Below are positions 1 through 23,234 of a stretch of DNA of 64,000 nt, piece after piece. The stretch is taken from positions 828 to 64,827 of the forward strand of contig JBHPGP010000001.1 in the NCBI GenBank assembly GCA_042570305.1, given 5' to 3'. The stretch's first letter is position 1, and each line of letters starts with the position of its first letter. The stretch is from Candidatus Omnitrophota bacterium (lineage in GTDB: Bacteria > Omnitrophota > Gorgyraeia > Gygaellales > JAHJCI01). Under the pieces are notes generated by a model. The model made no database searches. It was given only the letters and a program-made list of their open reading frames with translations, and was not told the origin of the DNA. The position numbers and the translations under genes were made by a program.

Positions 1-3000
1 GTATGGCATTTGAACCTGTTTCACCCTGAAATAATCCCCATACTTGCTTTATTTCTCCTGTATCCTTATCTATCTCCTGTATTGGCGCAAAGAACTTTGT
101 CTGAGCTGTGTCTAGCTCTGGATGTCCCGCAAGTAAGGTCTTTTGCCCCTCAATATATGCTTCCTTTGCTTCAGAATCCATTTTGTCTTCTAATGTGAAA
201 TATTCTAATGGAGCGCTAAACAGGCGGGGCTGAGAAAGCTGTTCATAGGTGGCTTTCTCAAGTTCTCCTTGCTGATTAAGAACATATGTTGTCTCTCCCA
301 TTATCCGATTAATTGCGTAATCGCCTACCAACTTCTTTGTTCCCAGCCAACCCGCACCTGCTGAGACGCTGCCTAGGGTAGCTCCGGTCCCCCAAGAGAG
401 AGTGCCCTTCAATAAGGTTTGCCCACGAGAAAGCGTTCCAGTAGGACTTGCTGCTGCTGGCTTTAGTGCAAAACGGCTGTTTATCCCTTTCATCGCTGCA
501 CCCAAAGTAAGAAAACCGCCGGCGCTAAAAGTTAACAGCCCTAGATTAGCTAGAACATTTCCTCCGATTGTGCCTTTTAAGCCATCATGGTGTGCTCCAA
601 AATAGTACATAGTTGCACCTGCGCCCATTACGCCTACACCCATTGCCCCCGCCTTTACCGGATTATCCTGAACAAACCTGCTTACTGCTTTTGCATACCT
701 GTTATTTGTAGCGAACTTAGTAACCGGTCTTAAGGCACTAAATGCTGTATTGAAGAGTACTGCTGAAGATGCAACAGAATCAAAATTATAGGCCAATCTA
801 TTTGCGGATTTGCCCAAAGCACTAAAATCTCCACCGCTGCCTAAAAGAGGCATACCTAAAGCAAAGGCTGTATTAATCGCAAGGAACTTTGGTGTAGTTG
901 CTATGGCCTTACCAACAAAGTTCATTGCCTTACCAACACCAGTGAGATTTCCACCAACCAGCGGAAAACCGCCATGGCCAAACTCACCTACCATAACAAA
1001 CCCATTAGAAGATTGTTTTATATGATGCATCCTGGCATGAGATTGTATTCCCTTGCCAACATCTCTAAAACCTGTTCCTGAACCAATTAAACTACCGAAC
1101 AAATAAGCCCATTCTGCAGGGCTGGCAGGCATTATCCCAGCTGCATCAGGGCTACCAGTGGTTATGTCGCGAAGAAGATTACCTAAAGCAAGAAGTTCTT
1201 GTAATGTCTCGGGGTGAAAAGCATTCAATACTAACCCGGGAGAAGCCAGATAAAATTTGGTTAATCCAAAGGCGTAGGAAGAGGCAACTCCAACCCCAAG
1301 TATACTATTGAATGATTGCAAGACTACGCCTGTTTCTATCTGGTCTAATTTCTTCACCCTTTCTCGCAAAGGAGTAATCCCTAAAACCTGCCTGCCGCCG
1401 GCCGTTGCGATATTATTCGCTAGCGACCTGACAAAAGAAGGCTGGTAGTAATCAAATTCATCTACTTTTCCATCTGCATTAATATCTAAATCCTTGTTAT
1501 CTATTATTCCATCCTGGTTAAAATCTTCAGTAGCCACTGTTGGAGGCTTTATTTTTAATGCGTCATATGCAGCATATGGCGTACTCAGGCTATAGTAAGT
1601 AATAAAGGATGTTTTTAATGGATGCTGCATTAACTTTTGCCCTAATCCTGGGAATGCTTTACCTACTAACCAACCTCCAGCATACCCCATTTTGCTCATA
1701 ATCACGTTGGGCGCCTTATAACCAAACCTAAACAAATTCCACGTAAATTTAGGAGGCGCGACCTTAATCGGCGGCGGGGCTGAGTTGGGTTTAAATGGTG
1801 AACGCATAGCTGTAACGCCGCCAAAAACTGCTCCGATTCCAAAGTGGATTAAATCTCCCTGCCAGCCAAGGTTATACTGTTCGGGCAGGCCGAATGAGGT
1901 TAAGTAGGTGCGGGTTGAGCCTGGATTTTCAGGATCCGGTACATCGAGTAGAGGAGTAAGGCGACCTCCGGCAAGACCAACCGTACCATAAAGAAGCGAG
2001 GAACTTCCCACTTTCGCCAGTGTGCCGGAAGTCCCAGCCAACGCAGAACTAAATCTGGGAATAAACTTGAATCCCGCACCTATCGTAACGGCTAAAGCAG
2101 CTCCTGTCCCAAAATCAACCCCTGCCTGTTTCCAGCTGTAGGGCATACCCCGGAATTGGCTATCCAGGTATCCCCTGCCAACGCCTATAGTACCGCCCGT
2201 ACCTGCCATAGCTGCCCATTTAGCGCCTTGATAAACTACTGGATGAGCGCTGGCAAAAGATGCGAGCCTGCTTGAGTGGACAACTGAATTAAGACCCCTG
2301 CTCACAAGGCCTAGCCCCTTAAAGCCGACTGTCATCAATATGCCCGTCATCATAGACTGCATGGCAATTTGTCCGGACTGCTGAGGGGACAGACCTTGCC
2401 CATTACTCATTGCATTGGCCACAAGCAGGTTCACTCCTGTCAAGCCAACGCCGGTTAACAGTGCCCTTGATGACAGGCTGGCCGTCGTTGTCAATATGCT
2501 TGCAGTCCGGGAGGCTGTAGCAGCGGTTGTTGTACCCATTAACCTTAATGCGCCTGTTGCTCCAGCTCCCACAGCACACGTTCCTACAACCAGCGCTACT
2601 GTAGCAAGGTCTCCATAAGTAAAGTGGTTGGTGCTACTTCCTACCGTTGCTGTTCGCGGGTACTTCATTTCCCAGCTCAATCTTGAGAAAACCGGAATGC
2701 CCTCTCCCCATCCAGGCCTTGATTTCATCATATTATCGCGCAGTTTTTGATACGAGGATTTGGGATATGTATAGCCTCCAACAATAGTTCTGGTCTGCTT
2801 TTCGGAAAGCTTGCCTATCTCTATTCCTTTAATCTCCTCTCCGATAAGGAGGAATCCGCTGACTTCAGTAATCAGCGCGATCTTGGGAATAAATTTCTCT
2901 TCTCCCTTTTCCTGATAATAGATGCCGTCTTCGGATATTCCGGTAACATAGACAAAGTGGTCGGAATTAAGGTGTGCAATAAAAGGAATTAATTTATTGG

Positions 3001-3883
3001 TTGGTTGGTTGATGAGCTGACTGGGCAGCAGCTTAACCGGGTAGAGCTTAAGCCCTAATGACTTGGCTACCTCGCTTAATGCAAAAAAGGATGTTTTAAG
3101 CTTGCCTTTTAATTCCTTAATATTGCCGGTAAGCAGGTCAACCAGTATAACCCGCAGGGCTAATTCTTCTAACGTTATATCTATCTTATTGTACTGCAGA
3201 ATGTTATGTAAAGCATAAACGCCACAGTAATTGTCTATCTGGGTTGATGGTTCCCTTAACCATTTGTAAATCTTCTTAATAAGTGGGTAACTAATATAGA
3301 GGCTGTCTGGGCGTAACATGCTTTTACTTAAATAGAACGGCACTCCTCTTGGCCAATAATCAACAAACTTCCGGCCATGTTTGACAATATCCACTATTGT
3401 CTTTGCCGGTGCCTGGCTTTCGGCAATCTCCTTCTCTGACCTGCCATATGATATGGAAAACTCCAGCAGCCTGATTATGCTATTTAAGGATAATTCCATG
3501 CCCTTCATTACCTGAAGGGATATCTGGTCATAATAAGGGTTTAACCACCACGACGGAATATTCTCATTTGGATCCTGCGTTAAGGCATTAGAGTGATTCG
3601 GCGTCGGGGTATCTACTACCAGATTGGAGGCGATCTCAACCCGCTGCAAGGGTTTCTCAGCCAAGAAATCAAGAGAGCGGCGCACGTTCTCGGCAACAAA
3701 ATTAGCCAGATACCCTGTTTGCCCTGAACCAAGATAATAGCGCGGAGCCCAAAGCACGCTGGGATCATAACCCATTGCCCAGGCTGCCTGTTCAGGGACA
3801 AAAACAATCACCACCAACAAGGCAACTGCCCTTATCCAGCGCTTGAATTTTGACTGAGTTTCTTGTTTAATCTCTTCTTTCAT
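1..3883 (-). CDS. Giant membrane-anchored protein, 3' end outside the window (at least 1294 aa). Has an N-terminal signal-anchor, a papain-like/C39-like cysteine peptidase domain, a long Gly/Ala/Thr-rich hydrophobic region and tandem EF-hand-like Ca-binding loops.
   Basis: Absent from the supplied ORF track because it has no stop codon inside the window. Hand translation from the ATG (complement of 3881-3883) gives MKEEIKQETQSKFKRWIRAVALLVVIVFVPEQAAWAMGYDPS... I checked it codon by codon for 3883->2701 and 1561->1441 without a stop. No minus-strand ORF is listed below 3616, consistent with one open frame to base 1. Motifs: NYCGVYALHN (Cys codon 3224-3226) and NSDHFVYV (His codon 2957-2959). 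Confidence 0.8.
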   Translation of the reverse strand, partial: MKEEIKQETQSKFKRWIRAVALLVVIVFVPEQAAWAMGYDPSVLWAPRYYLGSGQTGYLANFVAENVRRSLDFLAEKPLQRVEIASNLVVDTPTPNHSNALTQDPNENIPSWWLNPYYDQISLQVMKGMELSLNSIIRLLEFSISYGRSEKEIAESQAPAKTIVDIVKHGRKFVDYWPRGVPFYLSKSMLRPDSLYISYPLIKKIYKWLREPSTQIDNYCGVYALHNILQYNKIDITLEELALRVILVDLLTGNIKELKGKLKTSFFALSEVAKSLGLKLYPVKLLPSQLINQPTNKLIPFIAHLNSDHFVYVTGISEDGIYYQEKGEEKFIPKIALITEVSGFLLIGEEIKGIEIGKLSEKQTRTIVGGYTYPKSSYQKLRDNMMKSRPGWGEGIPVFSRLSWEMKYPRTATVGSSTNHFTYGDLATVALVVGTCAVGAGATGALRLMGTTTAATASRTASILTTTASLSSRALLTGVGLTGVNLLVANAMSNGQGLSPQQSGQIAMQSMMTGILMTVGFKGLGLVSRGLNSVVHSSRLASFASAHPVVYQGAKWAAMAGTGGTIGVGRGYLDSQFRGMPYSWKQAGVDFGTGAALAVTIGAGFKFIPRFSSALAGTSGTLAKVGSSSLLYGTVGLAGGRLTPLLDVPDPENPGSTRTYLTSFGLPEQYNLGWQGDLIHFGIGAVFGGVTAMRSPFKPNSAPPPIKVAPPKFTWNLFRFGYKAPNVIMSKMGYAGGWLVGKAFPGLGQKLMQHPLKTSFITYYSLSTPYAAYDALKIKPPTVATEDFNQDGIIDNKDLDINADGKVDEFDYYQPSFVRSLANNIATAGGRQVLGITPLRERVKKLDQIETGVVLQSFNSILGVGVASSYAFGLTKFYLASPGLVLNAFHPETLQELLALGNLLRDITTGSPDAAGIMPASPAEWAYLFGSLIGSGTGFRDVGKGIQSHARMHHIKQSSNGFVMVGEFGHGGFPLVGGNLTGVGKAMNFVGKAIATTPKFLAINTAFALGMPLLGSGGDFSALGKSANRLAYNFDSVASSAVLFNTAFSALRPVTKFATNNRYAKAVSRFVQDNPVKAGAMGVGVMGAGATMYYFGAHHDGLKGTIGGNVLANLGLLTFSAGGFLTLGAAMKGINSRFALKPAAASPTGTLSRGQTLLKGTLSWGTGATLGSVSAGAGWLGTKKLVGDYAINRIMGETTYVLNQQGELEKATYEQLSQPRLFSAPLEYFTLEDKMDSEAKEAYIEGQKTLLAGHPELDTAQTKFFAPIQEIDKDTGEIKQVWGLFQGETGSNAI

Positions 3884-3915
3884 ATCTTATTGCTGCACAA
3901 AAAGTTACATACTCT

Positions 3916-4048
3916 AAAATCTCAGCGGGTTAGTGCTCCCCCGCGGCCTTCGGTAGCCTGGCTTTTTCCGATTCTGCATCGGGAACCCATGGCTTTGCGC
4001 GCCCCTAACTCCTTAGGTGTCAAGGGTTTGCCTTTTCGATGCCGTCAC
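3916..4048 (-). promoter_or_regulatory. Candidate c-di-GMP-I (GEMM-I)-like riboswitch in the 5' leader of the giant-protein gene
   Basis: The minus-strand RNA reads ...AAAAGGCAAACC-CUUGACACCUAAGGAGUUAGGGG-CGCGCAAAGCCAUGGG...GCCGCGGGGGAGCAC... GGCAAACC (4025-4032) and GCGCAAAGCC (3991-4000) flank a hairpin. From memory, these resemble the GEMM-I core (GGCAAACC...GGGACGCAAAGCC). The element ends in a GCGGG/CCCGC hairpin followed by GAUUUU. It lies in the 210-nt TadC-to-giant-ORF spacer. Confidence 0.5.
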
Positions 4049-4093: not shown

Positions 4094-4957
4094 TTAAAAC
4101 TTAAGGAATCCGCCACGCGTAAACTGAATTAATATTGGCCCGGCCACAACTATCATAACCACCGGCAAAATAAATAACAGCAAAGGCGCTAAAAGTTTTA
4201 TCGGCGCCTTTAATGCCATTTCCTCGCCTTTTTGAAACCGGCGCATTCTTATCTCTTCTGACTGCATCTTTAATGTTTCTCCAATTGGAGTTCCCATACG
4301 GTCTGCCTGCAGCAGGGTGCGCACAAAAGAAATCATCTCCGGGCTGTTTATCCGGTTGGCCAAATTCTTTAATGAGTCGCGGCGGGAGCCTCCCATCTTT
4401 ATCTCGTGAATCAAAACCTTAAGCTCATCAACCAGGACGCAGGAACGGAACCCCTCAACCACGCGATTGACTGCCATCATAAAATCTAACCCGGCTCCTA
4501 CGCAAATATTTAAGAGGTCGATAATGTGCGGCAAGTCCTTTAAAACCGCAGCCTGCCTTTTCTTTATTTTACTGTTAATCCACAGGTCCGGGACAAAGTA
4601 GCCAACGCACAAAGCCAAAATGAGCATAAGCGGTTCTGGACGGAATATAATGAATACCACAAAAGGCACAGATGCCATCGCCGAAAATTTAATCGCCAGG
4701 AATTGAGCAGCCTTCATCGGCCTGCCTGCGGAGACCAACTTTCTCCTCAAGTTCTCCATAGGAATATGGACTCTTTCCAGTAAGCGTTCAGTAATCTGCG
4801 TAGGAAAACTCAAGATGCTCCTGAATCCAGATGCAGAATGCGCATCTTTAATCTCTTCCGGCAGGTGCAATCCGCCAGCCAGGCTGCGGGAGGAGAACTG
4901 ATAAGCCAGCAACCCGATACTGGAAAAGAGAAATGCGGAAATAAGCAATAGTTCCAT
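4094..4957 (-). CDS. tadC: Tad pilus inner-membrane platform protein TadC (T2SS F-family domain)
   Basis: 287 aa with TM segments and a T2SSF-type core (GLDFMMAVNRV...MGGSRRDSLKNLANR...LLQADRMGTPIGETL...). Directly follows tadB. Confidence 0.85.
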   Translation of the reverse strand: MELLLISAFLFSSIGLLAYQFSSRSLAGGLHLPEEIKDAHSASGFRSILSFPTQITERLLERVHIPMENLRRKLVSAGRPMKAAQFLAIKFSAMASVPFVVFIIFRPEPLMLILALCVGYFVPDLWINSKIKKRQAAVLKDLPHIIDLLNICVGAGLDFMMAVNRVVEGFRSCVLVDELKVLIHEIKMGGSRRDSLKNLANRINSPEMISFVRTLLQADRMGTPIGETLKMQSEEIRMRRFQKGEEMALKAPIKLLAPLLLFILPVVMIVVAGPILIQFTRGGFLKF

Positions 4958-4959: not shown

Positions 4960-5811
4960 TTACACCTCAACCCGGCTTAGTTTCTTGATTAAGATTACTC
5001 CGATTATTTCCGAAGCAACTGCCCACATCAGCAAGCCTTGTCCGAGTTTATCCTGCAGCATTATCTTAAAATTTTCCGGATTAACAAAATAGATAAAAAT
5101 TCCGAAGGCAATGGGCAATAAGCCCATAATTACTCCCTGCAGCCTGCCCTGGACTGTCAATGCTTTTACCCGGTCTTCCAGCTTCTTTTTCTCTCTTATG
5201 GTGGACACCAACTGGCTAAATATCTCGGTCAGGTTTCCTCCCGTCTCCCGGGAAATTCCGATAGCAGTGGTGATTAAATCCAGGTCATCCACAGGCATGC
5301 GTTTCTTAAGATGGGCCAGGCACTCCTCCAGGGCCACTCCCATTTGATTCTCTCTCATTACCAGGGAGAACTCATCGCTAATCGGTGGCGGCAATTCCTC
5401 TGCCAGCACCTCAAAGGACTGGTTTAAACTCATGCCTGCCTTAAGCGAACTGGAAAGAAGCATCAGCCCGTCAACCAGCTGGCTGCTGAATTGATTTCGC
5501 CTGCGCCCAGAAATAGTCCTGATGATTGTCGGCGGTGCGGCCAAACCAAGAAGCAATCCCGCAATAAAACCAATGGGATTGCGCATAAGAATCAGCCCGA
5601 GCAATCCCAGGCTTAATGGTACAATCATAAATATTTGAAATAGCTTGCGTTTCTCCGTGAAGATAAACATCCTGTCCAGCTGTTTGGTTACCTCGTGCAT
5701 GCGTATTTCTTGAATCTGAGAATAACGCTTCAGCAAAAGCGGAATTAGCTTAAAGGCTAAAAATACAACCGAGGCAAAGGTTAATAGAAAAATAATGCTT
5801 TTTAATACCAT
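4960..5811 (-). CDS. tadB: Tad pilus inner-membrane platform protein TadB (T2SS F-family domain)
   Basis: 283 aa. T2SSF-like core (LKAGMSLNQSFEVLAEE...AIGISRETGGNLTEIFSQL) with TM helices at both ends. Confidence 0.85.
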   Translation of the reverse strand: MVLKSIIFLLTFASVVFLAFKLIPLLLKRYSQIQEIRMHEVTKQLDRMFIFTEKRKLFQIFMIVPLSLGLLGLILMRNPIGFIAGLLLGLAAPPTIIRTISGRRRNQFSSQLVDGLMLLSSSLKAGMSLNQSFEVLAEELPPPISDEFSLVMRENQMGVALEECLAHLKKRMPVDDLDLITTAIGISRETGGNLTEIFSQLVSTIREKKKLEDRVKALTVQGRLQGVIMGLLPIAFGIFIYFVNPENFKIMLQDKLGQGLLMWAVASEIIGVILIKKLSRVEV

Positions 5812-6014
5812 TATCTCTCCCAGACTAAAGGTTTATCACCACGGGGCAGCTCGTATTGCCGGCCAAAACCAAAGACATCGGCTGATTGGCGCCAACGGCT
5901 ACATACTGCCCGTTTAATATATATCTGGATTCCCAATAACATAGCAATAACTACTGCTAACAACACAGTATATTCAATAAACGAAATCGCTTTTAAGTGT
6001 TTGCTTTTCATCAT
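5811..6014 (-). CDS. Flp-like pilin/pseudopilin (divergent, A instead of G before the xxxxEY motif)
   Basis: 67 aa. N-terminus MMKSKHLKAISFIEYTVLLAVVIAMLLGIQIYIKRAV shares the IEY + hydrophobic helix + Q.YIKR motif with the upstream pilin array. Confidence 0.6.
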   Translation of the reverse strand: MMKSKHLKAISFIEYTVLLAVVIAMLLGIQIYIKRAVCSRWRQSADVFGFGRQYELPRGDKPLVWER

Positions 6015-6015: not shown

Positions 6016-8196
6016 TTACCTGTGCCTTTTCTTTATATAAATATCCTTGGTCCTTTTAGCAGCTTCGCCAGGAAGCTCATCGGGTTTATAAGTATACCCC
6101 GGCCCGTAATGAAAGGTTGCCTTGGCAACTATCCCGTGGTTCATGGCCAAATTCACCAATCTGGCCCTTGGCGTATTCGGGTCAGAAGGGTTGCCATACG
6201 CAAGTAATTGCTCCAGCGTTGTTGCGTCTCCGTTATTAAGAAAAGCCATGAATCTGTCGGCAGTAGGCCGCAACAGGTTTGTTACATCTGCGTTTTCAGC
6301 AAGCGCCGCATTACGGCGGAATCTGAATCTCCAGAAATTACTCAACGGGCCACGCTTGGCTAAATCCTCATCATAGCGGGCAACTGTAAGGTCAAATTCC
6401 TCCTCTGCCCATTCTATCCTCTGACAAATCCTGAATCCCCAGTTACGGCGCTTCACTGTAAGATAGGGCAATTTAAAATCTTGCGGCACATCTAATCTAA
6501 CATAAACCATATGCGCGGGGCTTTCTTTCTGTACTGTATTGCTAAACTCGTCCAAAACTACATCCTTCCAAACATAAATAGCCTCGTGAACCCATGGCTC
6601 GTCTTTCCTGCTTGCTGCCTCAAGGGCTACCTCGTTAATCCTTGTGCGAAGGCTCTCAATACTTTCTTGCATTAGTTGAAGGCGCGCGATAAAGGGCGGA
6701 ATGATAGTATTGCGATTACTATCATTGTTACAACCACAGTTATAATAGTTATCGCAAGCTGCCGATGCACAGATGCCGCCACCGGAACAATACCGCCCCA
6801 TGGCGCAATTCTGAATATAGAGAGGGCAAGCGCTGCTGCAACATCCCCTTACACCGCCGGTAGGGGTATTGCAGCTATTCTCAACCAAACAACTCGATGA
6901 ACAAAGCTGACAACAGCCCCTGCCGCCGCCGCAGCCAGCGTAAGCATCACACACGCACCACCATGAATATTCATCGTATTCCACGTGCCCGGCGCAACAA
7001 CCTCCGCCGCCCGGACCGCATGTCCAGGGGCCGGGAGACGAACAGCTGTTTACGCATGCAAGTATCTCGTTTTGCCTTTGCGCTAATTGAGCAATCCAGC
7101 CTTGCAACATTGCTTCCCACTCCAGCATATGGTCATACCAATCCTTGAAGTCATCGGTCGGCGCTTTCAGATCATCAAACTGATTCATCCAAGTCTCAAA
7201 ACTGCCAACGAGATCTTCCTTGCTGGTATTATAAATACCCTTGGCAAATATCTCAAAAAGTCTTATGTCTCTGTAAAACTGGCCCAGTTCGTCATTCTCG
7301 TAGTCGCCATTATCCGGGTCCGCAGGATCAAAGAAAGTCAAATCTTTTGTGTAATCATCCGCAAACTCAACTCCGTAGCCATGGCTCCATAACCGCACAA
7401 TAAAGGATTTAAATTCGCCTGCCAGCCAATCAGTTATTCTCCAGTTTCCATTTACCAACAAATGAACGCTATGAGCATCCCCGGTCTGGGGAACCGGCAC
7501 AATATGAAATTGAGGGCTGCCAAATAGGTATTCATAAAAATCGTCAACGAGGTCTCCTATGCGCGGCAATGAATCCAGTCTCTGGAAATACCAGTGGTTA
7601 AACCGGGAAATCTTATCTAATGTGCCGGGGAATTTATTTCCGTCTCTGTCCGCATCAAATCTATCCGGCACCAAGTCCTGGTCAGTGACCGTAGCAAAAA
7701 GCGCAAATTGAATTGCTGCCTCTGTAAGCCTCTGTTCGGTAGACATATTCTGAAATTTCTCTTTCAATGCCTGAACCAGCTGGGGGTCAATATGGGCTGC
7801 GCTAATACCTTCGGAGACTAAAAACCCGCCCGTAGCCCCTCCCATGACCAGTCCGAGTGCCACCTGGGCAATCAATGGTCCGGTAATTGCGCTTGCGGTA
7901 GCAAGGGTACAAATTGTTACTACGATTGAGGCAATAATTATTAAACATCCTATAATCAATGACCAATTAAACTCGCAAGATTCAATACTATCGCCCCACA
8001 TTTCCATCTGCTGCTTTATCCCTGTAGCCATACTGCCCAGCCCCGAGGCAAGCAAAAGACCTGCTCCGTCACAGGCATTATCAATGGCTGTCTTTTTCTG
8101 GGCTATCTGACCTATATTTATAGTAACCACAATAAACAGGAATATGGCTGCGATGGCTAAAGTGATTATAGTCGCAATCTGCGCCCTTTTTGCCAT
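6016..8196 (-). CDS. TadG-like pilus-associated protein with an internal Cys-rich module
   Basis: 726 aa. The N-terminus (AQIATIITLAIAAIFLFIVVTINIGQIAQKKTAIDNACDGAGLLLAS) resembles the TadE/G-like 'Tad' N-terminal domain. 22 Cys occur within 109 residues, encoded at 6730-7056. Confidence 0.65.
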   Translation of the reverse strand: MAKRAQIATIITLAIAAIFLFIVVTINIGQIAQKKTAIDNACDGAGLLLASGLGSMATGIKQQMEMWGDSIESCEFNWSLIIGCLIIIASIVVTICTLATASAITGPLIAQVALGLVMGGATGGFLVSEGISAAHIDPQLVQALKEKFQNMSTEQRLTEAAIQFALFATVTDQDLVPDRFDADRDGNKFPGTLDKISRFNHWYFQRLDSLPRIGDLVDDFYEYLFGSPQFHIVPVPQTGDAHSVHLLVNGNWRITDWLAGEFKSFIVRLWSHGYGVEFADDYTKDLTFFDPADPDNGDYENDELGQFYRDIRLFEIFAKGIYNTSKEDLVGSFETWMNQFDDLKAPTDDFKDWYDHMLEWEAMLQGWIAQLAQRQNEILACVNSCSSPGPWTCGPGGGGCCAGHVEYDEYSWWCVCDAYAGCGGGRGCCQLCSSSCLVENSCNTPTGGVRGCCSSACPLYIQNCAMGRYCSGGGICASAACDNYYNCGCNNDSNRNTIIPPFIARLQLMQESIESLRTRINEVALEAASRKDEPWVHEAIYVWKDVVLDEFSNTVQKESPAHMVYVRLDVPQDFKLPYLTVKRRNWGFRICQRIEWAEEEFDLTVARYDEDLAKRGPLSNFWRFRFRRNAALAENADVTNLLRPTADRFMAFLNNGDATTLEQLLAYGNPSDPNTPRARLVNLAMNHGIVAKATFHYGPGYTYKPDELPGEAAKRTKDIYIKKRHR

Positions 8197-9932: not shown

Positions 9933-9934
9933 AT

Positions 9935-13169: not shown

Positions 13170-13173
13170 TTTA

Positions 13174-13618: not shown

Positions 13619-13627
13619 CTTATAAGC

Positions 13628-16600: not shown

Positions 16601-17485
16601 GGAAGGCAAATACCAGAATAATTCATTATCCTCCAGCAGGGTCTCCAAATCAGCCATTTCTTTTATATCCATAAGGAGATATTCTCTTAAGGCATTGATC
16701 TTCTGCTCCTTCACCTCAACGATATCCTCTTTATAATTCGGCTCTTGAGAAAATACGTAGGAGTAAGGCGATTCCTGTTCAGGGCCGCCAAAGAAATAAT
16801 ACAATATCTCTGCCTGGTTAGTCCATCCATTCTGGCCTCCATATTCCAGTTCTTCCAAGGCCAGGTTTACAAAGTCTGTGCTTGTTGCATAATCAGGATT
16901 ATTATCTAACGGGTGGGGTAGATAAATCGTCCTGGGTTTACATTCCTGTAGAATATCCTTTATATCAAAGAGCATGTTCTCCTTTGTATACCCTTGCTTT
17001 GCCCTGTTATATGTTGCGCGATAAGCAGAGGCATAAGTTCTCGTCATATCTGAATTATAATGCACTTCGTATCTCTCCTGCCAAAGATGCGACAATCCGT
17101 TATCAGGGTAACTTAAAAATATAATATCTTCCTTATCCAGGCCTAAGCCATTGGTTGCGGATAAAGCCTGTTTCTGAAACTCCTCTGCCCGGGCAATATA
17201 ATCATTGGGGGATAAAGCTTCTGGGTTTTGATTGAAGCCGGCGCGGGAGAGGCCAAACCTGCCTTCGCCATTAGTCAAAAACACAACCTTTATTTTTTTA
17301 TTTGCTTTAACTGCCTTGAGAATCGTTCCCCCGCAACATAGGGTTGCAACACCCGGGTGCGGTGAAAAGATGATTATGTCAGTGGAGGCTTGCTTGGCAT
17401 GGGCGGGAAAAAAGAACAGGAAAAGATAAGGCAGTGCGAGGATTAAAACCCTGGCCTTTAATTTACTGAGGATCAAATAACTCAC
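13628..17485 (-). CDS. Secreted multidomain carbohydrate-active enzyme: degenerate PIG-L-like domain, GH3 (NagZ-like) domain, intact PIG-L/LmbE deacetylase domain, and a GATase1/ThuA-like C-terminal domain
   Basis: The track ORF (to 17683) overlaps cpaF by 175 nt. An in-frame GTG at 17483-17485 gives VSYLILSKLKARVLILALPYLFLFFFPAHA, which looks like a signal peptide. Motifs seen are SPHPGVATLCCGG (degenerate), KHFPGLGHSRSDSH (GH3), AAHPDDEDG...DDHCQHQA (PIG-L) and FDTIVLGQGVY...NGGNLIVF. Confidence 0.7.
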   Translation of the reverse strand: MSYLILSKLKARVLILALPYLFLFFFPAHAKQASTDIIIFSPHPGVATLCCGGTILKAVKANKKIKVVFLTNGEGRFGLSRAGFNQNPEALSPNDYIARAEEFQKQALSATNGLGLDKEDIIFLSYPDNGLSHLWQERYEVHYNSDMTRTYASAYRATYNRAKQGYTKENMLFDIKDILQECKPRTIYLPHPLDNNPDYATSTDFVNLALEELEYGGQNGWTNQAEILYYFFGGPEQESPYSYVFSQEPNYKEDIVEVKEQKINALREYLLMDIKEMADLETLLEDNELFWYLPSNAQDYLKQLEHEWASISRSMQRQGYNINFAPVVDVADDIEDTSIPLARKKRIYSQDPDIVAELAYAVIKGMAKGGITPVLKHFPGLGHSRSDSHVWLPEIKISKKELLKKDFLPFMRLIKEPVNFWIMIGHAIYPDLKKELASLSRQIQTGILREELGFKGIIIVDELLVMQAVREYALQQEIKEPYIGEIVVRAFQAGADIAIFYVKSPQHAKETISSIIKHVKKAIEEGRIKQEDLDASLARILAEKERIFGKPLSHLLRDMTVEEKITQKLISDVYCRTEEEFNSWREVLSNYTLSGIHARDPRFIDKFQESSRIPMFITGQHEGGLVNQYGLNLYTRSAYLIGKEFERLGSGGKLKAHTRFSASNRTSPYARQQEACSRLDGQAKQSIIDSLVASQEEIIALFLKLHNTGYVSPNPNDLSPVIIHSDGRLEIKPFEDLPIEWLSMFSNQSQALCAYQLFKKAFEEWLDSQRGQGSVFKNIVAKFSDLKNSIRAQGNKGSIRVLCLAAHPDDEDGQALAYLKRKLGCSSYILLATRGEAGENELNQLLDKELGFLRTDEMERAASILGVNRVYYLGKHDFGYCRNPQEAFTVWGQQDTLERLVYFYRLIKPHIIITKHNKFNADDHCQHQALVILAEQAFDLAGDPAAYPEMQEQGLLPWQPLKFYQRRTGQEFSLKNDTDSDTVTIDVRQRIQPEDKTISQIALDALRQHRSQGDWQWLSTMYKQAEVSYQLAKSSVPVQQEYSFLDGIQTGLSLPVEDMQAPVPSGLPGVKIATPLRIGLVEENNNLLFIALKTLGCDFESLDADFLNRADLSQFDTIVLGQGVYSSDEALVKANNKHLLKFVKNGGNLIVFAPAYLRKQPEFSYAPYRIKMEFNPVTDEDAKIVILKPGHSLFNFPNKITALDFDGWLQDRGLSFAFEYSSKYTELISCFSQDIPLKGGYLIARYGRGSYIFTTYSWHRQLRDFHLGAYKNFANMLAFCYNEQD

Positions 17486-17507
17486 CTGAAATTTGCCAGG
17501 CGTTGTT

Positions 17508-19679
17508 TTAGGATTTTTTCTCAAATATCTCTTTTGACAGGGGGATGCCGCGGCTTTGTATCTCGTCAAAAAAGGTAGGCAACGTTCCGGTTGGGCGGAA
17601 TTCACCTTTGATATTGCCCTGCTCGTCAACAGAAACCTGATGAAAGGAAAAGATATCCTGTAATCCGATGTGTAATTCATCAAGCATCCCGGTAACCTCG
17701 GTTATTTGCAAAATCTTTCTTGAGCCATCCGAGAGTCGCGCTGTATGCACAATAATATCGATGGCTGAAGCAATCATCTCACGAATAGCGCGTATTGGTA
17801 TCTCTATGCCGCTCATCAGAATTAAGGAATCCAGGCGCGCTAAGACATCGTGGGTGGAATTGGCATGGATGGTGGTCATTGAGCCGTCGTGGCCCGTATT
17901 CATTGCCTGAAGCATATCCAGGCTTTCCGGCCCCCGGCATTCTCCAATAATAATCCGGTCTGGCCGCATACGCAAGGAATTGCGGAATAAATCGCGTACC
18001 GTTATAGCACCCTTGCCTTCAATGTTGGGAGGCCGCGACTCAAGCCTTACCCAATGCTGATGATGAAGTTTTAATTCTGCAGCGTCCTCAATAGTAAGTA
18101 CGCGCTCGCCCTGTGAAACATATTCAGAAAGTACGTTTAAAACCGTAGTTTTACCCGAACCGGTTCCCCCTGAAACGATTATATTCTTGCGCCCTAAAAC
18201 ACAAGCCCTCAAGAATTCAGACATTACATTATCAAGTGCGTTTAATCTTGTCAAATCCGCGATTTTAAGCCTCTCTCGTCCAAACTTACGGATAGTCAGA
18301 GTGGGGCCGGTAAGGGAAAGCGGAGGGATAATCGCATTAACCCGCGAACCATCGCTGAGTCGCGCATCCACCATCGGCACTGATTCATCTATTCTCCTTC
18401 CCAACGGCGCAATAATTCTCTCAATAATCTGGCGCACCTGCTCATTAGAAACGAACCGCTTAGAAGCCAACTCCAGCCTGCCGAACCTCTCCACGTAAAT
18501 CTGACTTTTGTTGTTAACCATAATATCGGTGATCTCCGCATCGTCAATCAGATCCTCCAATGGGCCAAAGCCCAGGGCTTCGTCGGTTATTTCTTTTACC
18601 AGGCGCTCGCGCTCCTCTCGGGTAGAAATTAATGTTCCTGCCTCCTGACTCAGTGCGTTATTTACTGACTTTATTGTCCTCTGCCGTAAATTTTCAATCT
18701 TTGTCTCATCTCCCGCAAAGCGGTCTAGCCTGCGCAAATCCAGCTCTTGAATAATCCGGCGGTGAACCCGTTTTTTCAATTCATCCATTCTTTCCTCGCG
18801 GCTTATATGCTTGGCAACCGCGGTGACTTCGCCCAGATGAACGGACTCCATAGGCGTGGGCAGGTTTTCTTCCGGCTTCTTAGGATGTGCGGAAAAGATT
18901 GTCTCCAGCTCCTGGTGGGAAATAAAAAAATCAGGGTGCTCCAGCAAATCTGCCGCTAATTTAATCAGTGTAGTGCTCACCCGGGAACGGGCGCTATCTA
19001 ATACTACGGGAACACGACGGTTCAAGGCAGAGCCAACAATCCTGCCCTCAGAGGGAATACGGGCGATTATGTCGCAAGGCAGAGCCATACTTACTTCCCG
19101 CCAGGTCACTGCTCCTTGAGATTCCGCGCGATTCAATATTGCCTTCATCATTCTCAGGGGAAGTAAATAAACTGACTGCAATATTTCGATTGCTTCTTTG
19201 GCCTGATAAACTGAAAGCACATCCGGGTTAACCACTATCAGGATTAGATTTGTCTGTTCAAACAGGGTAATCTGGAGTTTGCCAAAACTGCGGCCGGAAT
19301 CAACAACAATAAATTCATAATCCTTGCTGAGGTCTTTTAAAACCTGTGAGATGAATTGATAATCTATTAATGGCGCTTCCCTAGGGTTTAAAATAACAGA
19401 AAGCAGGTCAATCTTGCCTTTTGGATAATGGCAAATACAATTACGCAACTCGGAAGCAGCGTATTTGCCCTTCTTCCACTCGGAAGCCAAATTTACCAGC
19501 GCCTTATCTGATTTTAAATTAAGCATCCGCGCCATATCTCCGGGCAGATGCAGATCGATATCCAAAAGCAAGACCTTTTTATCTTTTAGTTTTTTTGCCA
19601 GGCAAACAGCGAGGTTAGTGGCAATAAGCGTTCTGCCAACACCGCCCTTTGTGCTGAAAACAGATATAGTCTGAGCCAT
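17508..19679 (-). CDS. cpaF: Fusion of a TadZ/CpaE-like ParA/MinD-type domain with the TadA/CpaF secretion ATPase
   Basis: 723 aa. The N-terminal ~255 aa read ISVFSTKGGVGRTLIATNLA...LLLDIDL...IVVDSG, a deviant Walker A with R in place of K as in CpaE/TadZ. The C-terminal part reads VSGGTGSGKTTVLN...IIIGECRGPESLDMLQAMNTGHDGSMTTIHANS, the T2SS-E/CpaF core. Confidence 0.85.
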   Translation of the reverse strand: MAQTISVFSTKGGVGRTLIATNLAVCLAKKLKDKKVLLLDIDLHLPGDMARMLNLKSDKALVNLASEWKKGKYAASELRNCICHYPKGKIDLLSVILNPREAPLIDYQFISQVLKDLSKDYEFIVVDSGRSFGKLQITLFEQTNLILIVVNPDVLSVYQAKEAIEILQSVYLLPLRMMKAILNRAESQGAVTWREVSMALPCDIIARIPSEGRIVGSALNRRVPVVLDSARSRVSTTLIKLAADLLEHPDFFISHQELETIFSAHPKKPEENLPTPMESVHLGEVTAVAKHISREERMDELKKRVHRRIIQELDLRRLDRFAGDETKIENLRQRTIKSVNNALSQEAGTLISTREERERLVKEITDEALGFGPLEDLIDDAEITDIMVNNKSQIYVERFGRLELASKRFVSNEQVRQIIERIIAPLGRRIDESVPMVDARLSDGSRVNAIIPPLSLTGPTLTIRKFGRERLKIADLTRLNALDNVMSEFLRACVLGRKNIIVSGGTGSGKTTVLNVLSEYVSQGERVLTIEDAAELKLHHQHWVRLESRPPNIEGKGAITVRDLFRNSLRMRPDRIIIGECRGPESLDMLQAMNTGHDGSMTTIHANSTHDVLARLDSLILMSGIEIPIRAIREMIASAIDIIVHTARLSDGSRKILQITEVTGMLDELHIGLQDIFSFHQVSVDEQGNIKGEFRPTGTLPTFFDEIQSRGIPLSKEIFEKKS

Positions 19680-19681: not shown

Positions 19682-21316
19682 TTAGTCTATGCTATAGGTA
19701 ATCGGTATATTTATCCAAAGTTCATTTTCTTCAATTTCCGGGGAAAAGGCAGGAAAGGGAGCAATGCTTTTTATCATCCCAATTGCACTCTCATCAAGCA
19801 CCCCCCAGCCTGATGATTGGCCGATTTTGACCTCGAGAAGTTCGCCTGTTGAGGCAAGATGCAGTGATAATACGACTGACCCCTCCAGGTTTTTTTCATG
19901 CGCCTCTTGGGGATAGACAAAATTATCTTGTATGAGTCTGACTACCTTTCTGGTATAGCTGGTTACTACCGGCTTTCTTATATCAGGATATGACTCTGCT
20001 GACTTTGTAAAGATATCCTTTTGCGAGCTGCCTTCTAAACCTGCCCGCATAGGAAATGCTTCGCTAATATTAAGAATGGTTGGCGTAAGCGTAATTATCA
20101 ATTCAGTATCGCCCAGTTCACCCCGTCCGCCTCCGGCTTTAGTCTTTTTGCCTCTAAAGAACACCCCCAGCAGAGGAATATCTCCCAAGAAAGGAATCTT
20201 GCTTATTGTCTCCTCATCCTTCTGTTTAATCAGACCGCTTATTGCTAACGTCTGGCCATTGTCCAGCAATAGCTGTGTCGAAGTATTGCGCTTAATCAAC
20301 GGATAAGCCAGGGCCGTAATTACGGTGGTTGAGCTGGTGGCTGATGACTCCTCTGAGCCAAGCGTCTCTGCCTCCGTAATCTCGCTAACCTCCACATTCA
20401 AGGCAACCTGGATTCGGTTCTCTGGCATAATCTTTGGCCTTATCTTTAACTTGATCCCGTACTCCTTATATGATACTTCTGTTCCCTCTTCTCCCTGCGT
20501 GCCAAATGCTGTGGTCAAAATCGGCTTCTCCCCTCCCACCAACAGCTCTGCTTCCTTGCCGCTCTGACATACTAGGCGAGGCCGAGAGAGCGTCCTGGCC
20601 TTACCTTCCTCAACCAAATAATCTAATGTAGCTACGAGATCCTGCCTTGTCCACTTCATAAGATGGAATAAGGCATCGGGCAAATCACTTAACTTAGCTC
20701 CATACCTGCCTGCGGGCTCAGCAAGCGCAATAACTCCTTGATGACTAAAGCCCAGGTCTTTTGTTGCGTCTTTGCTGACCTCTAAAATCTGTACCTCGAT
20801 TTCAATACTTGCTGTTTCTTCTTCTATTTTTATCAGATTAACGGTTTTGTCTTTAAGCGGGCCCAATGCGGTATCAATACGCCCCAAATCATCGGCAATA
20901 CTTGTCTTTCCTAAAAGCAAGATTTTTCCTTCGCTATCAGCCCGACGGGTATAAACACCGGGCAAATCTAACTCCTTAAGCAATCTATCAACGCGCTGCT
21001 GAACCGCCTCCATATCTTCAAGGAAAACCTGCAATTGTAACGCGTGCTGACCAAGGTCGTCCCACCAGATAAGGCTAGTCGTTCCCTGCCTCTTAGCCAT
21101 AATCACCATCTCAACCTTGGTGCTTGAAGTAACATCGGCAACATCAGGGTTGTTTATCGCTATCCTTGTGGGATTAGAAACATTAAAAACCTTAATCTCT
21201 CCCACATATAAAGTAATCAACTCTCCTTCTTTATAATCCGGCTGAGCGAAGCAAAAGCCATGGCAGGCGAGAACAATAAGCAATAGTAAAAATAAAATTC
21301 TGTCGATATTTCTCAT
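19682..21316 (-). CDS. cpaC: CpaC/RcpA-type secretin with a C-terminal TonB-C-like domain
   Basis: 544 aa with a signal peptide. It has a pilus N-terminal (BON-like) segment and a secretin core (LSRPRLVCQSGKEAELLVGGE...IPFLGDIPLLGVFFR). The last ~91 aa (19682-19957) read YPQEAHEKNLEGSVVLSLHLASTGELLEVKIGQSSGWGVLDESAIGMIKSIAPFPAF, the TonB_C pattern. Confidence 0.8.
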   Translation of the reverse strand: MRNIDRILFLLLLIVLACHGFCFAQPDYKEGELITLYVGEIKVFNVSNPTRIAINNPDVADVTSSTKVEMVIMAKRQGTTSLIWWDDLGQHALQLQVFLEDMEAVQQRVDRLLKELDLPGVYTRRADSEGKILLLGKTSIADDLGRIDTALGPLKDKTVNLIKIEEETASIEIEVQILEVSKDATKDLGFSHQGVIALAEPAGRYGAKLSDLPDALFHLMKWTRQDLVATLDYLVEEGKARTLSRPRLVCQSGKEAELLVGGEKPILTTAFGTQGEEGTEVSYKEYGIKLKIRPKIMPENRIQVALNVEVSEITEAETLGSEESSATSSTTVITALAYPLIKRNTSTQLLLDNGQTLAISGLIKQKDEETISKIPFLGDIPLLGVFFRGKKTKAGGGRGELGDTELIITLTPTILNISEAFPMRAGLEGSSQKDIFTKSAESYPDIRKPVVTSYTRKVVRLIQDNFVYPQEAHEKNLEGSVVLSLHLASTGELLEVKIGQSSGWGVLDESAIGMIKSIAPFPAFSPEIEENELWINIPITYSID

Positions 21317-22257
21317 TTTTCTTCTTCGGATAATGGCATAAAGCCTCTTTCCAATCCGCGATATACTTCAATCATTGTCTGTGGTCCTGTCGCGCGAGGC
21401 TCTGCTTTCCTGACAGGACGCGTAGGATATAGATATCGAAACAACGCATCCCAATCTGCTGTTTCAACCGGCTCTATACCAACATCATCCGATGAACGAA
21501 TAACCAATTTAATCTTTCCCTGTTCCTGGACAAAAGAAAGCAGAATGGATTCCTGTGGCGCCAGGGCAAGAGTAGCGGTGCGCATGCCAACACCTGACTT
21601 CCTCGACTTATCTTGCGTATCCTCCTGGCCGAAACTGGAAGTGGTATAAAATTCGCTGCCAACTGCCAATACCTCAACCCCTTGAAAAAGCGACACCAAG
21701 CGAGGCTTCTGACTATCCTCACCTAATCCCCCCACCCCAGAAGGCGGCGTGAGCAATGCCAGGACATCAACAAAATCTCCGGGCTTAAGCAAGCCGGATA
21801 CAGTAGAAGCACTGTCTACCGTAACAGTTACTGCCCTTTTGCCTTCGGGAGTAATCTCGGATAATGTTTTTCCTATTCTGCCTGGGGGTAGCAATTTTGT
21901 TTTAAGTATCTGTTCTCCCGCGGCAATTGGCGTAGATGAAATTTGACCGATCACTGCATCAAGAGAAGTAATCGCTCCTGGCTGGATATATTTAACCGGC
22001 ATCTCCTTGATTACGAGGTCCTCGGGGGTGACCGGAGTCTGCGGAGCAATATTAGTCGCTGCCAGCAGCACTATCCCGGTTCTCTCCGGCTGCGCCTGAA
22101 CAGCCGGCTGCATTTTTTTCTGGATCTCTTTTACCCTCGCCCACATTTCAGCTTCCCTGCGGCGCAGGTAAACATTAAGCAACAATATAGCTATAATTCC
22201 GCAGACTACAGCAATAATTAACGGAGACTTTTCACGTAATTTTTCCTTCAGCTGCAT
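21313..22257 (-). CDS. cpaB: Flp pilus assembly protein CpaB/RcpC
   Basis: 314 aa with an N-terminal TM helix. SAF-like segment ITPEDLVIKEMPVKYIQPGAITSLDAVIGQ...AGEQIL and RcpC-like segment KRAVTVTVD...LKPGDFVDVLA. Confidence 0.8.
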   Translation of the reverse strand: MQLKEKLREKSPLIIAVVCGIIAILLLNVYLRRREAEMWARVKEIQKKMQPAVQAQPERTGIVLLAATNIAPQTPVTPEDLVIKEMPVKYIQPGAITSLDAVIGQISSTPIAAGEQILKTKLLPPGRIGKTLSEITPEGKRAVTVTVDSASTVSGLLKPGDFVDVLALLTPPSGVGGLGEDSQKPRLVSLFQGVEVLAVGSEFYTTSSFGQEDTQDKSRKSGVGMRTATLALAPQESILLSFVQEQGKIKLVIRSSDDVGIEPVETADWDALFRYLYPTRPVRKAEPRATGPQTMIEVYRGLERGFMPLSEEEK

Positions 22258-23169
22258 CTATTTTATTCTTTCTTCATATACTACAATTTGGGCGCCTTCC
22301 ATCAGCTGGCTGCTTAACTCCTGTAGCTTCTGCTGCTGCTTCAGGAACAAAACATTCCTTTTGATTTCGTCCCATACCTCGGATAGCGACTTTGCTTGAC
22401 CGCCCCTGACCAGCTCAACCTTGACAATATAATATCCGCGCTTATCCTTAAACACATTGCTTATCTGTCCGGCTCCCAGGGCAGGAGAAAAAACTACTTC
22501 ATCAAATCTGAGAAAATCATTTCCGCGCTGGCCCTTTTTTATAAATCCCAGGCTCCCCCCGGAAGAGGCGTTTTCTGACTGCGAGCGTTCCCGAGCCAAT
22601 TGACCAAAATCTGCACCCTTTAACAATTCAATTAAAGTTTCCTTCGCACCGGCCTCATTGTCAAGAACAATCTCCCTCACCTGCCTCTCTTCCGTCTGGC
22701 GATATTGCTCCTTATAAAGATTATAAAAATCTTCGACCTCTGAAGAGGTAACCAGTATATTTTCTGTCTTTTGCTGCAGTAACTGGTTAGCTAAAACATT
22801 AATCTCTAGGTTCCTTAAGAGTTCCTGATTCTTGGGCAGTTTATCCAAGCCTTGCTTTTTCGCCTCTTGATAAAAAAGATAGCTTCTGACCAGCTCTTCG
22901 TTCAAATAAGCCAATTTCTCTTCGCGGGCAGTAATCTGGGCTTCGGGGCTGCCTACCAACTCATTATAGCCCTGAATTGCCTGCTCTAAATATTCTAAGG
23001 TAATTGGCATGCCGTTAACCTTGGCAATAATCGTTCCCTCAACCGGCATGAATTTCTCTTTAGAAACCAATTTAGAGACAAACGGCAACTGGGCAAGCTT
23101 CTCGCATCCCGCTAATGATAAGGCTGCCGTTGCGCAAAGAACTAAAGCCAAAATTGCCTTTTTATTCAT
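22258..23169 (-). CDS. Parvulin-type peptidyl-prolyl isomerase lipoprotein (PrsA/SurA-like)
   Basis: A PpiC rotamase region is present (VREIVLDNEAGAKE...GGSLGFIKKGQ...RGYYIVKVE). The lipobox LSLAGC follows MNKKAILALVL. The ATG at 23169 with AGGAGG 8 nt upstream is preferred to the track start at 23214. Confidence 0.75.
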   Translation of the reverse strand: MNKKAILALVLCATAALSLAGCEKLAQLPFVSKLVSKEKFMPVEGTIIAKVNGMPITLEYLEQAIQGYNELVGSPEAQITAREEKLAYLNEELVRSYLFYQEAKKQGLDKLPKNQELLRNLEINVLANQLLQQKTENILVTSSEVEDFYNLYKEQYRQTEERQVREIVLDNEAGAKETLIELLKGADFGQLARERSQSENASSGGSLGFIKKGQRGNDFLRFDEVVFSPALGAGQISNVFKDKRGYYIVKVELVRGGQAKSLSEVWDEIKRNVLFLKQQQKLQELSSQLMEGAQIVVYEERIK

Positions 23170-23206
23170 GTGTTTTCCTCCTGTTTTATTCTTTTCTTTT
23201 AAACAT

Positions 23207-23234
23207 ATTATCACAAATAAAAAAATGAAGTCAA
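23207..23234 (-). promoter_or_regulatory. Sigma70-type promoter (extended -10) for the PPIase-cpaB-cpaC... operon
   Basis: On the minus strand, TTGACT (23229-23234), a 16-nt spacer, then TGtGATAAT (-10 at 23207-23212). Confidence 0.55.

Follow-up and report, generated by a model that had tools for sequence, protein, structure and literature searches.

A Tad-type pilus gene cluster upstream of a giant gene in Omnitrophota, with candidate c-di-GMP-I riboswitches at two positions

The Tad-type cluster and its giant gene

The 64-kb stretch of DNA analysed here (the window) belongs to a Candidatus Omnitrophota bacterium: its fused ATPase, TadC and giant ORF, described below, are each 100% identical to NCBI proteins with that source, encoded on an 81-kb contig. 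The minus strand of the window, at positions 2-23214 of the numbering used throughout, carries 21 co-oriented, closely packed open reading frames (ORFs) that combine a Tad (type IVc) pilus core, a large set of pilin-like proteins and the beginning of a giant gene, together with two leader regions that resemble class I riboswitches for cyclic di-GMP (c-di-GMP-I). We found one ATGA and two TAATG overlaps at the gene junctions, with most of the remaining gaps at 2 nucleotides (nt) or less; an earlier model-made interpretation of the same letters, here called the sequence-only reading, had recognised the tight packing correctly but had reported several overlaps of the ATGA type. Family assignments are Pfam matches with scores above the curated cut-offs unless stated otherwise, and the scans covered ORFs picked from the 50- and 100-amino-acid (aa) ORF lists of the window. 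For comparison, a TadC profile was used to collect 80 loci (numbered with the prefix L) from GTDB species genomes, including that of Velamenicoccus archaeovorus LiM; loci L081-L084 were examined besides, and gene order was compared by BLAST of the window proteins against the ORFs of the fetched loci.

The first gene of the cluster encodes a SurA/PrsA-like periplasmic peptidyl-prolyl isomerase (PPIase; 22258-23214; Rotamase_2, 49 bits, and SurA_N) and is followed by genes for CpaB/RcpC (21313-22257; RcpC, 80.5 bits, and SAF) and an RcpA-type secretin (19682-21316; Secretin, 130 bits, and T2SS-T3SS_pil_N). As proposed in the sequence-only reading, the secretin ends in a TonB_C domain (53.5 bits; aa 465-542, nt 19691-19924). 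The best matches of the protein in the PDB are 8jvb and the RcpA structure 8odn, while its C-terminus matches the C-terminal domains of TonB in 6sly and 5lw8, and the same fusion was present in all eight other loci that could be checked, namely those in which the secretin fell within range. The next gene (17508-19679) encodes a 723-aa protein in which a MinD/ParA-like domain (AAA_31/CbiA/ParA, aa 3-190) is joined to a CpaF/TadA-type ATPase (T2SSE, aa 369-648, 212.9 bits). Its MinD-like half, with the Walker A motif KGGVGRT, occupies the position of TadZ/CpaE and is without the receiver-like N-terminal domain of TadZ. The best PDB matches of this half are MinD (4v03) and ParA (3ea0), and its sequence does not set it apart from MinD/ParA proteins; the proposed TadZ-TadA polypeptide is thus a single fused protein, as described, whose N-terminal part is not specifically TadZ. 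More than 100 full-length homologs of the fusion were listed, at 57-78% identity; those with a named source come almost all from Omnitrophota/Omnitrophica, with one labelled Deltaproteobacteria, and the names given to them by the Joint Genome Institute are CpaF. Both fusions had been considered atypical, yet with this many fused ATPases and with TonB_C on every secretin checked they are norms of the phylum, and annotators can treat them as such rather than as oddities or assembly errors. Two loci (L010:10977-12308 and L016:12689-14020) contain an extra ORF for a 443-aa CpaF-like ATPase without the MinD-like domain, located between TadC and the riboswitch/giant gene.

The inner-membrane platform is encoded by two genes of the T2SSF family, one for a TadB-type protein (283 aa; 4960-5811) that is kept in 78 of the 80 loci and one for a TadC-type protein (287 aa; 4094-4957) with 625 homologs, mostly from Omnitrophota. 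The cluster therefore holds a CpaF/TadA-family ATPase, separate TadB and TadC proteins, an RcpA/CpaC secretin and RcpC/CpaB, the set by which Tad systems are recognised, and the Tad core named in the sequence-only reading (CpaB, secretin, ATPase, TadB and TadC) is confirmed above the curated cut-offs. It does not have the hallmarks of type II secretion, as the platform is split into TadB and TadC and no GspC, GspL, GspM or GspO families were among the Pfam matches.

Ten ORFs encode proteins with a short basic leader followed by [GA]-x4-E-[YFL], and seven of these share the form [GA]Q[SN]xxEY. An array of seven pilin paralogs (117, 157, 117, 105, 124, 58 and 68 aa; 9579-12090) keeps the Q, E and Y of the motif invariant and yields weak Class_IIIsignal matches in Pfam; the 58-aa member (11528-11704) is Flp-sized, and relatives also keep pilin arrays. 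Next to the array lie a 390-aa pilin-like ORF (8447-9619; leader KG/QSLVEL; kept in 50 loci), which overlaps an 89-aa ORF (8196-8465; leader RA/QASIEF; kept in 36 loci), a 726-aa TadG-like pseudopilin (6016-8196; homologs in 35 loci) and a 67-aa pilin-like protein (5811-6014; leader KA/ISFIEY) with a BLAST match in 72 of the 80 loci, a count in which pilin-like paralogs cross-match. The 22-Cys module ascribed to the TadG-like protein is real, with exactly 22 Cys in aa 381-489 (nt 6730-7056); its score for PF13400 (Tad) is below threshold (16.9 versus 22.3 bits), and NCBIfam gave no match for the pilins, the TadG-like protein, the 293-aa protein described below (orf293) or the N-terminus of the giant protein. 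The earlier count of at least nine Flp-like genes is borne out by the leader motif in ten ORFs, though not by the Flp and TadE family models, to which we return below. In a rearranged locus type (L021-L027, L048, L060, L064 and L069; for example, L023:11043-17658), a short pilin set stands before TadB/TadC and a second set follows 3' of TadC, consisting of pilins, a 460-aa PF13400 protein and familyless proteins of 301, 413 and 357 aa, and the riboswitch and giant gene come after this second set. The 460-aa ORF of L023 passes PF13400 at 29.1 bits; it differs in size from the TadG-like protein of the window, to which homology was not shown.

Downstream of TadC, a frame open from 3886 to the window edge, with its ATG at 3883, encodes the N-terminal 1294 aa of a giant membrane protein (2-3883). 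In the source assembly the ORF continues to the contig end as a product of 1570 aa labelled 'partial' (P0121). The protein has a signal-peptide-like N-terminus and G/A-rich hydrophobic segments. Homologs of this N-terminus follow TadC in 49 of the 80 loci, most of them running past 2000-3300 aa to the end of the locus, and many of the loci without such a homolog 3' of TadC are cut off by the end of a contig; the gene called 3' of TadC in L084 encodes a product of 32,492 aa. The claim that an ORF of at least 1294 aa with a C39-like domain lies 3' of TadC was upheld by a Peptidase C39 (double-glycine peptidase) match at aa 219-323 (2915-3229; PF03412, 33.5 bits against a cut-off of 22). An alignment covering 48 loci, that of V. 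archaeovorus among them, shows the Cys (N-x-C-G) and His ([DEGS]-H-[FMY]-[VI]) of the domain in all sequences. In an AlphaFold2 model the domain reaches pLDDT values of 70-90 and Foldseek matches it to LahT150 (6mpz; TM 0.73), PCAT1 and ComA, while phmmer, run with this segment on the sequences in the PDB, found no match. The domain is probably an active cysteine peptidase, and it is probably extracytoplasmic, since it lies behind the signal-peptide-like segment at the start of the giant protein. We rejected C39 as a stand-in for the prepilin peptidase missing from the cluster: the pilin leaders are short and of class III ([KR][GA]/Q), not double-glycine leaders, and the domain, which follows a signal-peptide-like segment, would probably end up across the membrane from where such a peptidase is needed.

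The neighbourhood comparison called for by the sequence-only reading showed that the gene order recurs in more than 80 Omnitrophota loci, including V. archaeovorus LiM, in the succession PPIase, CpaB, secretin, fused ATPase, DUF192 protein, helix-turn-helix (HTH)-like protein (orf293), pilin array, 390-aa and 89-aa pilin-like proteins, TadG-like protein, small pilin, TadB, TadC and a very long ORF. The LiM locus (L055) can be aligned with the window, part for part, over the stretch that begins with the pilins and ends with the N-terminus of the giant protein. Given this recurrence, the cluster is not a chance arrangement.

Candidate c-di-GMP-I riboswitches before the pilins and the giant gene

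TadC and the giant gene are 210 nt apart, and this interval contains a c-di-GMP-I aptamer on the minus strand (3943-4047), which matches Rfam RF01051 at 3949-4042 with 41.8 bits against a gathering threshold of 35, in agreement with the GEMM-like leader and c-di-GMP control suggested earlier. A lineage covariance model, R1, was built from 14 nhmmer matches to this aptamer in the fetched loci and scores it at 79.3 bits. As read from the model alignment, its ligand pocket is canonical (G20/A47/C92). A search for a translational expression platform at this riboswitch gave no convincing pairing; in L004, which has one of the two aptamers most closely related to it, a small hairpin formed from the 3' strand of P1 lies over the UUG start codon and so hints at control at the level of translation in that locus.

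The second element is the leader of the pilin array (12106-12256, minus strand), made up of a promoter, a c-di-GMP-I-like aptamer and an overlapping intrinsic terminator. The promoter is a strong sigma70-like one (TTGACA-17-TATACT with TG; 12256-12228). The aptamer (12119-12224) is weaker than that of the giant gene, with an E-value of 2.4e-5 under R1. The terminator, CCGGGCUGCCGAAACGGUAGCGCCGG-U6 (about 12137-12106; -18.3 kcal/mol), overlaps the aptamer, whose 3' strand doubles as the 5' arm of the terminator. Both the terminator, with a compensatory change, and the -10 box are kept in L001, L002 and L006.

Scanning the 1.24 Mb of fetched loci with R1, we obtained 61 matches, 58 of them co-oriented with TadC. 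The 80 loci account for 59 of these aptamers (57 co-oriented with TadC), of which 25 precede pilin-like ORFs and 17 giant-like ORFs; in L084 (20795-22175) a match, at 23 bits, lies 60 nt upstream of the gene called for the 32,492-aa product. Viewed by junction, an aptamer separates the HTH-like gene from the first pilin gene in 25 of the 51 loci where this junction is visible and lies directly 5' of the giant gene in 18 of 49. The placement also holds in the rearranged loci, in which several genes stand between TadC and the giant gene; L083 and L084 add one case each. Independently of R1, 12 aptamers in 8 relatives exceed the Rfam gathering thresholds, five of them matching the RF03167 scaffold.

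Covariation shows that the aptamer structure is maintained: pairing is kept in 92% of cells and compensatory changes occur in 14 of the 19 pairs, whereas slid controls pair in 24-53%. Of the 61 aptamers, 55 allowed position 47 to be read, and all 55 have A there; G20 is found in 49, the C92 site is CC in 48, and we therefore regard the ligand pocket as being of the canonical c-di-GMP type; the equivalent of position 20 is A in 6 of the 61. A hairpin with a U-tract follows the aptamer in 55 of 59 cases, and in 49 the 5' arm of the terminator is the 3' strand of the aptamer, CCGGGYURCCGAA. Because the two structures share this strand, only one of them could form at a time, as is usual in transcriptional ON switches, and we infer that the aptamers act as such switches for c-di-GMP.

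The giant-gene riboswitches L034:3108-3192, L045:14320-14418, L048:11100-11210, L023:18042-18134 and L022:20028-20123 pass the RF03167 gathering threshold and nevertheless have A47. We rejected an assignment to the RF03167 'GGC' variant, as position 47 is A and not the G that defines the variant; the Omnitrophota aptamers seem to share the scaffold of RF03167 (c-di-GMP-I-GGC) without its pocket change. A full-text literature search for riboswitch together with Omnitroph* returned only unrelated papers within the searchable library, and the word riboswitch is absent from Seymour et al. 2023, West-Roberts et al. 2023 and a 2026 preprint on giant genes. Judged within the searchable literature, the two-position c-di-GMP riboswitch layer is apparently new.

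Accessory genes and genomic neighbourhood

A protein of 1285 aa with two PIG-L domains around the N-domain of a family 3 glycoside hydrolase (GH3; Pfam PIG-L twice and Glyco_hydro_3) is encoded between the ATPase and the pilins, from a GTG at 17485 (13628-17485, minus strand; the open frame spans 13628-17683); its C-terminal ~300 aa are without annotation. The enzyme and its length are as described in the sequence-only reading, but it is not an integral part of the locus because its position varies between loci. Only the window, L002, L007 and L012 have the gene 3' of the ATPase; in L084 it lies four genes upstream of that for the PPIase, the homolog in L081 is not part of a Tad locus, and the close relative L082 is without it. 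An exhaustive HMMER search recovered about 20 near-full-length cluster representatives among 1.8 billion. The enzyme is an exported accessory protein, a lineage-specific insertion outside the conserved core, and probably de-N-acetylates and trims glycans containing N-acetylglucosamine (GlcNAc).

The two remaining genes before the pilin leader encode a DUF192 protein (13277-13618, minus strand; 60.3 bits), whose gene is directly 3' of the fused ATPase in at least 21 loci, and orf293 (12288-13169, minus strand), a conserved 293-aa protein with a probable N-terminal HTH and no Pfam match. Longer homologs of orf293 in 25 loci give weak matches to HTH_Tnp_Tc3_2, HTH_33 and HTH_32, and a single-sequence AlphaFold2 model (pLDDT 44) is confident for aa 7-56 alone. 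GC content falls to 0.38 at 12001-14000, compared with ~0.45-0.48 nearby, across the HTH-like gene, the DUF192 gene and their intergenic regions.

On the plus strand, an operon divergent from the cluster (23405-27039) encodes a FIST sensor, a HisKA/HATPase kinase and a REC-GGDEF protein, and both this operon and the neighbouring aminotransferase gene recur in L082. Since it is divergent from the 5' end of the cluster, and likewise flanks the locus in L082, the module is a plausible source of the signal and, by its domains, may supply c-di-GMP. A tRNA-Glu(CTC) gene (23247-23324, minus strand) lies between the PPIase gene and the operon; the corresponding interval of L082 contains an inserted AbiEii-family gene pair (L082:4274-5672).

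Further along the window, 45449-57474 is the neighbourhood of the replication origin, with parB, parA and yidC on the minus strand and dnaA (49656-51026), dnaN, dciA, gyrB and gyrA on the plus strand. The cumulative GC-skew minimum is at ~46-48 kb and the genes on either side point away from it. From the position of the origin and the orientation of the genes, the Tad/giant locus lies ~26-49 kb from oriC and is co-oriented with replication; giant genes have been reported at ~100 kb from the origin (West-Roberts et al. 2023). A small AdoMet_dc (SpeD-like) gene (32442-32870, minus strand) adjoins genes for tRNA-Asp and tRNA-Val. A paper on neofunctionalised SpeD homologs (PMC10407285) reportedly mentions V. 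archaeovorus.

Interpretation and relation to known systems

The sequence-only reading held that no described system combines these parts. This proved incorrect: both Seymour et al. 2023 and West-Roberts et al. 2023 report the locus, and its order is found in more than 80 loci. Seymour et al. 2023 (PMC10066038) treated Tad complexes and giant ORFs as markers of symbiosis and cited expression of the LiM locus. West-Roberts et al. 2023 described a conserved secretion-system locus of more than 10 genes that precedes giant genes and includes gspD/E/F homologs, rcpC, a Rotamase_2 PPIase and many small genes for class III signal peptides; they also reported C39 near the N-termini of giant proteins, PilZ genes downstream and GGDEF domains inside the giants. 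The 2026 preprint added pilus/secretion and glycoside-hydrolase flanks of giant genes and a PF03412 architecture cluster. In its origin, its gene set and order and its downstream giant ORF with N-terminal C39 (truncated here), the window locus agrees with the published giant-gene secretion locus of Omnitrophota. The locus type is therefore published, with proteomic support in one organism; the refutation set out in the sequence-only reading, an already named and characterised Tad subtype, thus applies in part, since the literature describes the locus without naming it as a Tad subtype or characterising it by experiment. The HMM searches proposed at the same time gave matches for T2SSF, T2SSE, Secretin, TonB_C, PIG-L, GH3 and C39, none for PF04964 and PF07811, and a below-threshold score for PF13400.

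We consider it likely that the region encodes an Omnitrophota Tad (type IVc) pilus machine placed immediately upstream of a giant gene and gated by c-di-GMP riboswitches. In the mechanism that we propose, the upstream secretin and ATPase genes would be transcribed independently of the switches. A rise in c-di-GMP, possibly supplied by the adjacent FIST/kinase/REC-GGDEF module, would fill the aptamers and thereby block formation of the terminators, allowing read-through into the genes from the pilins to TadC and then, at the second switch, into the giant gene. Gated in this way, the fibre subunits and the giant surface protein would be produced jointly and serve to attach to another cell or to attack it. 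On the wider proposition, that c-di-GMP-I ON-riboswitches, acting in pairs, add a so far unreported layer of regulation across much of the Omnitrophota and switch the apparatus on as a unit, with the signal perhaps coming from the adjacent REC-GGDEF module, we are evenly divided.

Several observations weigh against this interpretation. For the predicted pilus, Pfam scans of the cluster and of the window ORFs found no prepilin peptidase (Peptidase_A24) and no TadD/CpaD pilotin, though either may be encoded elsewhere in the genome. The Flp (PF04964) and TadE (PF07811) models do not match the pilin-like ORFs; as these models, PF13400 and NCBIfam all fail, the label 'Flp-like' rests on motif, size and the weak Class_IIIsignal matches. 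The identity of the giant gene rests on N-terminal homology, because the gene is truncated here. As for the switches, the pilin-leader aptamer is weak, with 22.3 bits for RF01051 (12124-12217), below gathering, and 29.6 bits under R1, and the giant-gene aptamer is, like those of its two closest relatives (L001 and L004), without a recognisable overlapping terminator. Velamenicoccus-type loci, LiM included, have the same synteny and no riboswitch by either R1 or Rfam, so the switches are not essential to the system and are confined to part of the phylum. Finally, the A-site of the REC-GGDEF protein aligns as GGDDF with GGEEF in PleD, which makes its cyclase activity uncertain.

The main alternative follows West-Roberts et al. 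2023 and takes the genes for a dedicated secretion or assembly system, akin to the pseudopilus of a type II secretion system, whose task would be to export or position the giant protein, whole or in fragments. Besides having been proposed in print, it would account for the strict adjacency of TadC and the giant gene (49 of 80 loci, with many others cut by contig ends), for the parallel riboswitch control of pilin array and giant gene and for a pilin-like set (10 plus the TadG-like protein) whose size recalls pseudopilin sets; the Myxococcus Kil system moreover shows a Tad apparatus serving contact-dependent killing, with secretion left open (PMC8460266). The core, however, is Tad-type throughout (split TadB/TadC, CpaB/RcpC, RcpA-like secretin, CpaF-like ATPase), with no GspC, GspL or GspM in the Pfam matches, and the giant protein has a signal-peptide-like N-terminus of its own. 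Giant proteins also carry SecA-like domains (West-Roberts et al. 2023), and passage of a protein of 10,000-40,000 aa with many transmembrane segments through a secretin is implausible. We think such a dedicated role possible but unlikely, and it is compatible with a riboswitch-gated Tad machine rather than exclusive of it. It is improbable that, as the sequence-only reading had it, the supercluster is undescribed and couples a pilus mechanistically to a glycan-remodelling mega-enzyme embedded in it and to a giant effector. All of its parts exist and are co-oriented and tightly packed, PIG-L/GH3 genes occur near Tad or giant loci in L002, L007, L012 and L084, and glycoside hydrolases are recurrent flanks of giant genes in the 2026 preprint; against this stand the prior publication of the locus type, which largely refutes 'undescribed', the small number (~20) of full-length representatives of the enzyme, the position of its L081 homolog away from any Tad locus and the majority of loci, including the close relative L082, in which DUF192 is directly 3' of the ATPase and the enzyme is absent.

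The remaining alternative concerns the RNA elements alone, which might sense another ligand, such as 3',3'-cyclic GMP-AMP (3',3'-cGAMP) or the ligand of the c-di-GMP-I-GGC variant, or might be decayed and act only as terminators. Five relatives above gathering for RF03167 would fit this, as would the giant-gene aptamer of the window, which scores higher for RF03167 (44.1 bits) than for RF01051 (41.8 bits) though below gathering for the former, the A at the position-20 equivalent in 6 of 61 aptamers and the divergence of the pilin-leader aptamer (GGUUGU for GGCAAA; Rfam 22 bits). The pocket residues speak against a changed ligand, with A47 rather than the G of the GGC variant in 55 of 55 readable aptamers, G20 in 49 and CC in 48. 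Covariation that maintains the structure, PilZ and GGDEF around giant genes (West-Roberts et al. 2023) and the REC-GGDEF gene next door here point the same way, and we give this alternative very little weight.

If the proposal of riboswitch gating is correct, the giant gene, whose product reaches 32,492 aa in L084, may be the longest riboswitch-gated ORF. The phylum consists of widespread, uncultured bacteria of ultra-small size that are suspected to be predators or parasites, and the Tad-like locus with its giant proteins is the main candidate for their attack apparatus. The RNA aptamers are among the few parts of these organisms that can be tested directly in vitro, no culture being needed. 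Should they respond to c-di-GMP, they would provide a concrete 'attack mode' signal with a read-out in metatranscriptomes, as well as a marker that tells the apparatus genes (pilins and giant gene) from the upstream motor and secretin genes.

Compared with the published Omnitrophota locus (West-Roberts et al. 2023, Fig. 7A; LiM CP019384.1 12382-29832, Kizina 2022 and Seymour et al. 2023), the window locus comes from the same phylum and has the same families in the same order; it adds PIG-L/GH3/PIG-L after the ATPase, its giant gene is incomplete, and riboswitches before the pilin array and the giant gene distinguish its clade from LiM-type loci. With canonical Tad systems (A. actinomycetemcomitans tad, C. 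crescentus cpa and P. aeruginosa rcp/tad) it shares CpaB/RcpC, the RcpA-type secretin, the CpaF/TadA ATPase with a MinD-like partner and split TadB/TadC, and it has candidates for the short G-x4-EY pilin and the TadE/F/G-like pseudopilins. In contrast to them, its MinD-like protein is fused to the ATPase and is without the receiver-like N-domain, its secretin ends in TonB_C, and TadV/CpaA peptidase and TadD/CpaD pilotin are missing from the locus. It also has 10 pilin-like genes, most of 100-390 aa, on which the Flp and TadE models fail, and adds genes for the PPIase, DUF192 and HTH-like proteins as well as the physical link to a giant gene. Two predators have likewise Tad-derived machines, Myxococcus xanthus the Kil system (Seef et al. 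2021, PMC8460266) and Bdellovibrio its Tad system; for the organism of the window, predation is a suspicion. Like the window system, Kil combines a lineage-specific fusion on the ATPase (in KilF, an N-terminal FHA domain) with an atypical secretin and several pilins, and the delivery of killing factors was left open (PMC8460266); it differs in having its genes in two clusters, with a CpaA-type peptidase, and in being without a giant gene, TonB_C or riboswitch. The C39 domain shares with that of PCAT/AMS ATP-binding cassette (ABC) transporters (LahT, PCAT1, ComA) the fold, with TM 0.73 to 6mpz, and the catalytic Cys and His; it is not attached to an ABC transporter but stands at the start of a giant protein behind a signal-peptide-like segment. 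As in RF01051 riboswitches such as Vc2 of V. cholerae, the aptamers here combine a covarying fold, a G20/A47/C92 pocket and a competing terminator with pilus or adhesin targets. In Clostridioides difficile, a class II c-di-GMP riboswitch controls type IV pilin genes (pilA1). Relative to known c-di-GMP riboswitches, the elements described here stand apart in their Omnitrophota lineage, in some copies that resemble the RF03167 scaffold but keep A47, in being paired within one co-oriented cluster and in that one of the pair would gate an ORF whose product in a relative has 32,492 aa.

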